A stretch of DNA of 64,000 nt, taken from positions 124,001-188,000 of the forward strand of contig NW_026923836.1 of assembly GCF_032062105.1 (NCBI RefSeq), in the 5' to 3' direction. Below, one piece after another: positions 49,796 through 52,700 of this stretch (position 1 is its first letter; every line of letters starts with the position of its first letter). Both the position numbers and the translations under genes were made by a program. The notes beneath the pieces were generated by a model, which saw only the letters and a program-made list of their open reading frames with translations, searched no databases and had not been told where the DNA came from. Source of the DNA: Saccostrea cucullata (taxonomy: Eukaryota).

Positions 49796-52700
49796 ATGGG
49801 GATCGACGGACTCCTTTTCTTACTAGCCGTTATTGATGAAGGAGCTTTGTTGTTTTTAGTTGTGTATTTTGTATCCTTTCAGATTTCGTACATATCAAAA
49901 TAATTTACATTTATTTGTTCAATTTACCTCCCTGATCTGATGATCCTGATGATGATTATGATGACATGGAAATCACGCCTTTCTCAAATTCTGCTTATCT
50001 ATAATAATTGTAAAAAAACTTGTATACAATAAACATCTATTGCTCTTCACTGTTCAGTGCTATCAATCGTTGTGACAATTGATTACTGTAAACAAACTGT
50101 ATATTGATAAAATTTTTTTTAGAATGCTTTGTTTACAGGGACTTGAGACAATCCTAGCAAAATCGGATATATAGTATTATAGGGGTTCTGAGTCCACACA
50201 TTACAAACTTCATTTGATGTGTGGCATGCAGTGAGGTTCGATGTCAGTGGCCAGATAGCTCAGTCAGTAGAGCACCTGACTGGAGATTCAGGGGGCTCGG
50301 GTCCAAATTCTGGTCAGGTCAGCTGCATTATTCACCTCCCCCATTATAGATGTTTTACAGGCTGACTGAAGTACATTAACATCTTTCAGGGGGAAATCAA
50401 AATCCTTGATTACTGATGCATGTGTTTGTGGCCCTTATTAATGTATCCCTATAAATATTTTAATGTCTGTGCACTCCTCATGCTTCCTTTGGTAACCTCT
50501 TGCTCTCCTCAAAATCAATTATGATCAAAGAAGTTACCTCTAAGTCATTTTCCGTTGCTCCCCAAAGATATTTTTGGTAAGCTCATATTCATTTGTACTT
50601 ATATCTGTGGTTGATTGCTTGTATAGTCATGATAGTTGAACAGTATTCAGCTCTCTCACTTGACATTACCGAAACCATGATAAATGCAGATCATTGATGT
50701 AACCTCATATTCCTCATTATTTTAAACATCAGTCAAAGAACAAGGACTTGAAGTTTGTAAAACAAATAAAACCTTAACTCAAAACAGGTTATAACACTTT
50801 CAGATTTAGAATGTGATTATCTGAATGCAACTACATGTTGTACAAGACTCAATAAGGTAATCCTTTCTTTTGGTCAAATACTGATCACAGATTTTTCACT
50901 TTATTTTCATGATGAGAACTGTATTGTTCTCAAAAAATTTATTGTATAAATTTGCACAAAGGAATAAGAGTTGAAGAACAATTCACATAAATATTGACGA
51001 GAACTTAATTTCAGCTTCAAGATAATCTTGCAGAATTGAAAAATTTCTCTTGCACAAAATATGATAGTTCTTTTACCCCGCAATTGATTTTAATGAGAAC
51101 TTGACATTCACTCTCGTTTGCTGTCTTCAAAGTTATATTCTAAAATATTGTACCTTCATTTTCAGTTTGTATTACCAGAGATTATAGCCCAGGCTGTTCT
51201 AAATGTTCTGTTCTTAATAACTGGTCACTGGATCCTGTTCCTCCTGTATACACCTTGTACAGCATGGATAATCTATATGTAAGTCTAATGTACAGCGTGG
51301 ATAATCTATATGTAAGTCTAATGTACAGCATGGATAATCTATATGTAAGTCAATTTGTACAGCATGGGTAATCTATATGTAAGTCAATTTGTACAGCATG
51401 GATAATCTATATGTAAGTCAATTTGTACAGCATGGATAATCTATATGTAAGTCAATTTGTACAGCACGGATAATCTATATGTAAGTCAATTTGTACACAA
51501 TTCAAATAATCTATAAGTCAGTTTGTACGGCTGCTACAGCATGGTTAATCTGTATCTAAGTCAGTTGGTACAGCTTGGATAATCTGCATCTAAGTCAGTT
51601 TGTACACCACGGATAATCTACAAGTCAGTTTGTACACCATGGATAATTTTTAAGTCAGTTTGTACACTATGGATAATCTATAAGTCAGTATGACTAGGTA
51701 CACCATGGATAACCTAAAAGTAAGTCATTTTGGACAGCATGGATAATCTGTGTCTAAGTCAGTTTGTAGGCATGGACAATCTATAAGTCAGTTTGTACAG
51801 CTTGGATAATCTATATGTATTGAATTAGTATGTACAGCTTGGACAACTTATATGTAAGTCGGTGTGTACAGCATGGATATCTATAAAACAGTTTGTACAG
51901 CATGGATTATCTGTATCTATTTATATCATCATTTTTTTTCTTATAAAGATAAAGATGTACATGTATCTAGCGAGCTTTTGTAAGCATATAATTTTTCAAC
52001 AAAATAGGGAGTCAGTTTTTAATTAAGTGCCATGCCAAGTTACATATCCTCTACATCTATGTTTGCAGATATGTAATGAAGCCCTCAGGAAACATTGGGA
52101 TATACGACCCAGCAGAAATCCATAACAGACATCAACTCAAAGCCTACATGAGAGACAATATGATCAAAATGGCTGTCCATCTAATCTTTTTCTTCATTTT
52201 CTTGTACTGGTAAGTAGTTTCTCACTCTAGGTGTGTGCAGTGCATGTGAGAGCACCCTCCCTTTTGTGTAGCACCTTTCCTTTGTATCTTATGTTATAAA
52301 ACACTGATGGAAATATCAGACAGTATATTAAATATATCTTTCTTAGTATAAGGACTAACTTATTACTAACTCAAAGCTACTATATATGACACAAAAGGGA
52401 CCTCTGCATATTTATCTGTCTCTAGATATCTGTTGTCTTTATCTTAATATTTGTCTGGGGAATGGTAGAAATTCCACTACTACTCATTTATGCATAAGTT
52501 CAATTTAGCATTAAAAAGAGTTGTTCATTATTCATCTTTTCACGTGCATATACGCAGTGCTTTGATTTTAAAAGTTTGTGAGATTCTAGTTTCTTAAGTT
52601 GATTCATTTCATATTTCAAAGAGGTGTGAAAGAAATGTCAAGAAAAAAAGTTATCCTTGAAAAATTGGTAGAACACAAGATGAGATTTTTCTTTTAGAAA

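Follow-up and report, generated by a model that had tools for sequence, protein, structure and literature searches.

A minisatellite carrying copies of the exon 3 splice donor of CNIH4 in the oyster Saccostrea cucullata

Introduction

When an exon is followed by a ladder of identical 5' splice sites, which of them does the cell use, and does the ladder affect the gene that carries it? The question is raised by a 64,000-nt stretch of AT-rich animal DNA from the oyster Saccostrea cucullata (hereafter the window, in whose coordinates positions are given unless a contig is named), in which the end of exon 3 of a cornichon gene, CNIH4, is repeated in tandem into intron 3. CNIH4 and Erv14 are cornichon COPII cargo receptors. 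The first-pass annotation of this locus, made from the sequence alone, offered two readings of the array: either the most upstream of seven identical donors is taken, or the array diverts transcripts to NMD, so that repeat number could tune CNIH4 dosage.

The host gene and its surroundings

The Pfam family Cornichon (PF03311) was matched by three of the five exon peptides of the host gene, and RNA reads and contigs joined its exons (Table 1). The first joint was crossed by 16, 8 and 11 reads in the RNA runs X21, X22 and X23, respectively, as well as by a contig of run X5. The products of 162 and 142 aa obtained with the first exon 3 donor (donor 1) are identical to the NCBI proteins cornichon homolog 4-like X1 and X2 of S. 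cucullata, and one of the two is also present in a Logan assembly. Where a name was given within the top 120 of 203 homologs, it was cornichon homolog 4 or an unspecific one. A second cornichon locus, with CNIH1-type motifs, was found on contig C17639 (173462-174677). On sequence comparison, the identification of the host gene as CNIH4, distinct from the CNIH1 type, holds; it is based on the Cornichon domain, the names of the closest relatives and the CNIH1-type motifs of the second locus.

Table 1. Features of the CNIH4 gene and of the array in the window
Feature	Position	Strand	Evidence
CNIH4 exon 1, coding part, ATG 49796	49796..49870	+	joint 49870>50788
Intron 1, likely U12-type, donor GTATCCTTT, branch-like CCTTAAC 50772-50778	49871..50787	+	sequence
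CNIH4 exon 2	50788..50856	+	Pfam PF03311 E 5e-7; RNA joints both sides
CNIH4 exon 3, 113 nt, last 23 nt = exon part of repeat unit	51166..51278	+	PF03311 E 1e-8; reads exit at 51278 into exon 4
Unit 1, across exon/intron boundary, authentic donor GT 51279	51256..51288	+	alignment, RNA junctions
Proximal block of six 33-34 bp units (2-7), intact pseudo-donors at 51312, 51345, 51379, 51413, 51447, 51481	51289..51491	+	
Distal block, units 8-20, degenerate; GT retained at 51720, 51817, 51854	51492..51927	+	
CNIH4 exon 4, 141 nt, acceptor AG 52067-52068	52069..52209	+	PF03311 E 1e-8; reads at 52069 continue into donor-1 exon 3 end
Alternative last exon 5a, coding part, 142-aa isoform	52853..52883	+	18 X21 joint reads; X1 and X4 contigs
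Alternative last exon 5b, coding part, 162-aa isoform	52965..53055	+	6 X21 joint reads; X4 contig

The real alternative splicing of this gene concerns its last exon, both versions of which begin with GATGAT. The same pair of isoform lengths (142/162 aa) is named by NCBI in S. echinata, S. cucullata, C. angulata, M. gigas and C. virginica.

Several other repeats were encountered in the window. A piece of intron 1 (50245-50302) matches many unrelated transcripts, whose loose ends are tRNA-like, and is probably a SINE fragment. Upstream of CNIH4, two arrays of 10-bp units in opposite orientation (48827-48932 and 49412-49514) lie about 480 bp apart, a pairing that looks like a MITE or a foldback element. 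Longer satellites with units of 128-166 bp were reported by TRF at 9986-12466 and 60272-61535. A possible leftward exon start at 48110-48140 (with CAT closing ...aaacatgttgcggtgcatagcaacat...) hints at a gene that would diverge from CNIH4 in a head-to-head arrangement.

Structure of the array

TRF detected a tandem array at 51255-51916 with a period of 34, 19.7 copies, 77% matches and a score of 607. The unit alignment resolved it into 20 head-to-tail units of 29-37 bp each plus a 9-bp remnant, the repeat unit consisting of the last 23 nt of exon 3 and 10-11 nt of the intron. Both analyses agree with the first-pass annotation that the last 23 coding nt and the donor were tandemly amplified. 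The seven donors that it placed in the window, CTATAT/GTAAGTC (the slash marking the exon/intron boundary), were found exactly at its positions (Table 1), except that their identity is limited to -6 to +7: at +8 the first two have T and the other five A. The weaker donors that it gave at 51720 and 51854 are present, and a third, at 51817 (TAT/GTATTG), had been overlooked. Its statement that most distal units have lost the GT also stood, with 10 of 13 units affected, six by a 4-nt deletion and four by a G>C change (alignment, by eye). These losses trace to two shared changes and not to ten separate events; thus selection against distal GTs cannot be argued and was discarded.

The two blocks differ in age. 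Compared with unit 3, units 2-7 showed 5 substitutions in 203 aligned nt, whereas units 8-20 showed 67 in 419 (16%). Within the proximal block, units 3, 5 and 6 are identical and units 2, 4 and 7 carry one private substitution each; units 1-2 are 33 bp long and units 3-7 are 34 bp long.

The array locus is single copy in the 1.17-Gb assembly. The 19-nt core of the unit, searched with at most one mismatch, gave seven matches there, all at the CNIH4 locus, and the reversed control gave one. Since matches to the core are confined to this locus, the array is neither a chance product nor a dispersed satellite, and an origin from a dispersed satellite or transposon was ruled out. A search for orthologous DNA in metagenome contigs returned no match, and none of the other windows scanned resembled this one.

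Exon 4 starts (52069-52081) with ATATGTAA, of which the same eight letters occur in the repeat unit. The likeness is probably a coincidence and may confuse read mapping. The residues encoded at this exon start are Y87 and M89 here and F and T in S. echinata.

Consequence of passing the first donor

The sequence ATG TAA lies across donor 1 (51277..51282, plus strand) and places an in-frame stop in any transcript that passes it. Conceptual splicing from eight later donors gave TAT ATG TAA in all cases, with a product of 86 aa versus 142/162 aa that stops short of the last hydrophobic stretch (residues 116-142); the premature stop and the loss of this stretch had been predicted correctly. This stop is the donor's own GTAA read in frame, hence it would exist without the array. 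A stop usually exposes a message to NMD when it precedes the last junction by more than 50-55 nt. In the later-donor messages the distance is 170-712 nt; by that rule they would thus be NMD targets.

Donor choice in RNA

The RNA sample comprised seven of the 24 listed runs, from five studies: the raw poly(A) runs X21, X22 and X23, and the contigs of X1, X2, X4 and X5. In the run search, the share of query words was at most 0.09 in each of the 24 listed runs. With 23 nt shared, short-read mappers can put junctions on the wrong copy. Reads were mapped to 49700-51330 and 51920-53800, 44-47% of each raw run being read, with the array interior (51331-51919) outside the mapped regions. Any later-donor message must nonetheless cross 51279-51311, which is covered.

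Among the reads listed, 14 in X21 and 15 in X23 left exon 3 at 51278 for exon 4, as did a contig of X5 (depth 46). From the side of exon 4, all 15 listed X21 reads (agreement 1.0) carried 30 letters of the donor-1 exon end, and contigs entering exon 4 with donor-1 sequence were present in X1 (two), X2 (depth 429) and X4 (depth 68). Past donor 1, depth was zero at 51295-51330 in X21, X22, X23 and X5, and it was also zero over the 3' part of intron 3 (51920-52045) in the runs mapped. No read or contig in the seven runs, where depth is low, NMD is active and contigs drop rare forms, corresponded to later-donor or read-through RNA. The count of junctions from each donor to the acceptor at 52069, proposed with the annotation as a check, thus gave, with NMD active, 51278 for all junctions seen. 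The 95% upper bound on the share of later-donor or read-through RNA is 0.10 from reads (0/29) and 0.07 from a depth estimate (0/~41), both for surviving RNA only.

The animals that supplied the RNA belong to a closely related lineage and are not the assembled individual. They show fixed differences from the assembly at 49813, 49816, 49828, 52144, 52183 and 52196, and in two intron-4 contigs 13 of 229 and 19 of 218 letters differ (6-9%). Their intron 3 was covered by no read or contig. Since the 16% divergence of the distal units exceeds that of the split from the RNA animals, an array probably predates this split. The RNA animals thus probably carry an array as well, judging by the distal-unit divergence, in which intact proximal copies are putative.

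Could the choice of donor 1 be explained by its strength or by RNA folding? Predicted U1 duplex energy was equal (-5.4 kcal/mol) for donors 1-7 and for the donor at 51854. Predicted accessibility was 0.075 for donor 1 versus 0.023-0.061 for the others, and 0.091 for the donor at 51720. We thus rejected donor strength and folding as the basis of the choice, nothing in these crude models favouring donor 1. Equal U1 pairing, together with a first donor not clearly more accessible than the rest, leaves position as the likely basis of the choice.

Donor-bearing minisatellites across the genome

Three perfect copies of the donor word AGGTAAGT at a spacing of 28-53 bp gave 401 matches (overlapping within arrays), against 23 for the reversed word; three perfect copies of the acceptor word TTTTCAGG gave 108, against 57 for its reverse. 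At periods of 28-38 bp, we obtained 98 matches at 27 places with AGGTAAGT versus two matches at one place with the control word. Once look-alike contigs were merged by eye, the 27 places corresponded to about 21 unit families. As a single word, AGGTAAGT occurs 44,897 times in the genome and the control word 53,570 times; the control word being the commoner, the base rate does not explain the excess of donor arrays. The acceptor-word arrays formed about nine families by eye among 100 listed of the 108 matches, with one family present on many contigs. All these counts come from one donor word and three comparison words in unannotated genome sequence.

The first 100 of the 401 donor matches correspond to 16 places, and these places, which form 12 families, were the sample in which we looked for exons. 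A crude exon rule (acceptor, open frame and GC step) was applied to 13 loci representing all 12 families, L058, L059 and L063 being omitted as repeats. The rule was passed by eight of the 12 families, against 316 of 5036 random GT positions, a null that is too lenient because many AGGTAAGT words are real donors. It rejected L055, an exon confirmed by Pfam, and would also reject exon 3 of CNIH4 on the GC step (0.38 against 0.32); missing real exons, it is both conservative and rough. In total, nine of the 12 families start at an exon-like end (eight by the exon rule and L055 by its Pfam tRNA-synthetase match) and three did not pass, which gives P = 0.006 against a base of 35% and 0.07 against 50%.

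Two of the 13 candidate exon peptides from other donor arrays scored above the Pfam cut-off; that of L055 belongs to an exon for a class I tRNA synthetase, that of L062 to one for a tyrosine phosphatase. The peptide of L050 may resemble the N-terminus of a CoA-transferase; this assignment was left aside as unsupported, the peptide giving no match in PDB. A donor-bearing unit of 47 bp (L063) extends over about 14 kb on contig C4451 (5217-19529) and recurs on C202, C1272 and C3535; on two of them, the unit begins at a common short exon-like end.

The CNIH4 array is thus one of many donor-bearing arrays in this genome. With acceptor-word arrays far fewer, we raise the idea, with some doubt, that minisatellites in this oyster arise preferentially at splice donors. 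We found no paper on donor-array enrichment in oysters in the open-access literature, and one may be in print elsewhere; the cited sections of PMC10078293 do not describe donor ladders.

Discussion

We think it fairly probable that the copies in the array are silent pseudo-donors and that, of the donors behind the exon, the spliceosome selects the first. A segment of 33-34 bp across the exon 3 donor of CNIH4 is amplified in tandem into intron 3, perhaps by slippage or unequal exchange. Growth near the exon end is suggested because the proximal copies match today's exon and the distal ones have decayed. The donor would be chosen by its position, through exon definition or 5'-to-3' scanning, and not by strength or folding; rare slips to later donors would be removed by NMD, and the array may be near-neutral, one of many such arrays in the genome. 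The evidence for a first-donor rule comes from mammalian cells (the F7 gene), not from molluscs. Of the two readings offered at the outset, use of the most upstream donor fits all the RNA examined as well as the F7 precedent, whereas diversion to NMD and an effect on dosage received no support, nothing being seen past donor 1 in poly(A) RNA, in which decayed products stay hidden while NMD is active.

Less likely, though deserving some weight, is that donors 2-3 are used by a minor share of transcripts and that the resulting 86-aa messages are destroyed by NMD, so that steady-state RNA looks clean; on this reading, output might change a little with the number of copies, though not as a control shaped by selection. 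In predicted U1 pairing the six pseudo-donors are on a par with donor 1, the stop lies at least 170 nt before the last junction, our read-based bound is just 7-10% of surviving RNA, and pseudo-sites are used in human 6-16 (the two nearest) and CBS (two), according to the cited part of PMC1557585. This has to be set against the seven runs, in which neither reads nor contigs went past donor 1, and against F7, for which PMC1557585 gives 50 further clones per transfection without any other variant.

Selected control of dosage, in which the ladder would route part of the CNIH4 message to NMD under regulation and the number of repeats would set the receptor level, appears very improbable to us. The geometry would permit it, with a stop directly behind donor 1, and the proximal block is homogeneous. 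However, the diverted product was absent from the seven runs (steady state, NMD active), the in-frame GTAA provides the stop with no need of an array, and the distal copies, which have decayed, speak against constraint. In addition, arrays of the same build occur at unrelated genes (class I tRNA synthetase, tyrosine phosphatase) and thus point to a general mutational process. Multiplication of the proximal copies during assembly is hardly credible: units 3, 5 and 6 are identical and the locus occurs once in the assembly, hence a second haplotype is lacking for comparison, but the private substitutions of units 2, 4 and 7, the change from 33-bp units (1-2) to 34-bp units (3-7), the structured variants of the distal block and the small size of the whole array (only 0.67 kb) all speak against it.

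Taken singly, the CNIH4 locus is ordinary: the repeat is of a described kind and the message is intact. The array nevertheless offers a natural substrate for the choice among identical donors, each wrong choice being marked by a stop. Should donors indeed seed minisatellites, dozens to hundreds of genes would carry donor ladders silenced by the first-donor rule, and a single genome would offer many replicates independent of one another. This large natural panel for studying the rule and any length-dependent leak to NMD would include the CNIH4 array, in which each copy is followed by a stop. If donors seed arrays far more often than acceptors or random sites do, splicing or transcription would be tied to local repeat mutagenesis.

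Comparison with known systems

Apart from the array, the oyster gene can be compared with other cornichon genes. Human and mouse CNIH4 are listed among minor-intron genes, with the donor TTC/GTATCCTTG, in the cited part of supplement 1 of PMC6717393, and the gene described here, like them, has kept a donor of the U12 type, as its intron 1 likely is. A pair of alternative last exons, giving 142 and 162 aa, sets oysters apart from the CNIH4/Erv14 genes compared.

The novelty implied by the first-pass annotation did not hold, as the CNIH4 array belongs to a known class, that of junction-spanning minisatellites with 5' pseudo-sites. The closest relative that we compared is the 37-bp VNTR of intron 7 of human F7; in the minigenes described for it in the cited sections of Borensztajn et al. 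(2006; PMC1557585), splicing is confined to the intact donor that lies furthest upstream. According to these sections, the next copy takes over in three cell lines once the first donor is inactivated, and the authors concluded that stop codons did not account for the choice. F7 and CNIH4 are alike, as far as these sections go, in that unit 1 lies across the exon/intron boundary, identical donors follow one another at about 35 bp and the most upstream one alone is used (for CNIH4, in the RNA examined). They differ in the exon part of the unit (4 nt in F7 versus 23 nt in CNIH4), in the number of units (5-9 versus 20 in two age classes) and in the stop, which is in frame behind every later donor of CNIH4 whereas two F7 pseudo-sites are without one. 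The F7 array is demonstrated to be polymorphic in length, with donor 2 serving as a backup, whereas the CNIH4 array is known from one assembled copy.

Other human minisatellites described in the cited part of PMC1557585 repeat a donor 10-25 times within an intron, namely those of 6-16 (IFI6, intron 2), CBS (intron 13), LMNB2 and PDGF. Two pseudo-donors are used besides the first in 6-16 and CBS, and the first only in LMNB2 and PDGF; within the 7-10% bound, the CNIH4 RNA resembles the latter pair.

The amphioxus 'mirages' found at Adh3 and globin genes come, like the CNIH4 array, from a marine invertebrate and repeat an exon/intron boundary in tandem, in the manner of a minisatellite. In the cited part of PMC3087553, which gives no genome-wide count of donors against acceptors, their units are 81-100% alike and many, not all, keep the splice signal, normal splicing is undisturbed, and such elements are suggested to be general in the genome. 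They differ in coming from another phylum, and in that both haplotype and somatic length variation are shown there.
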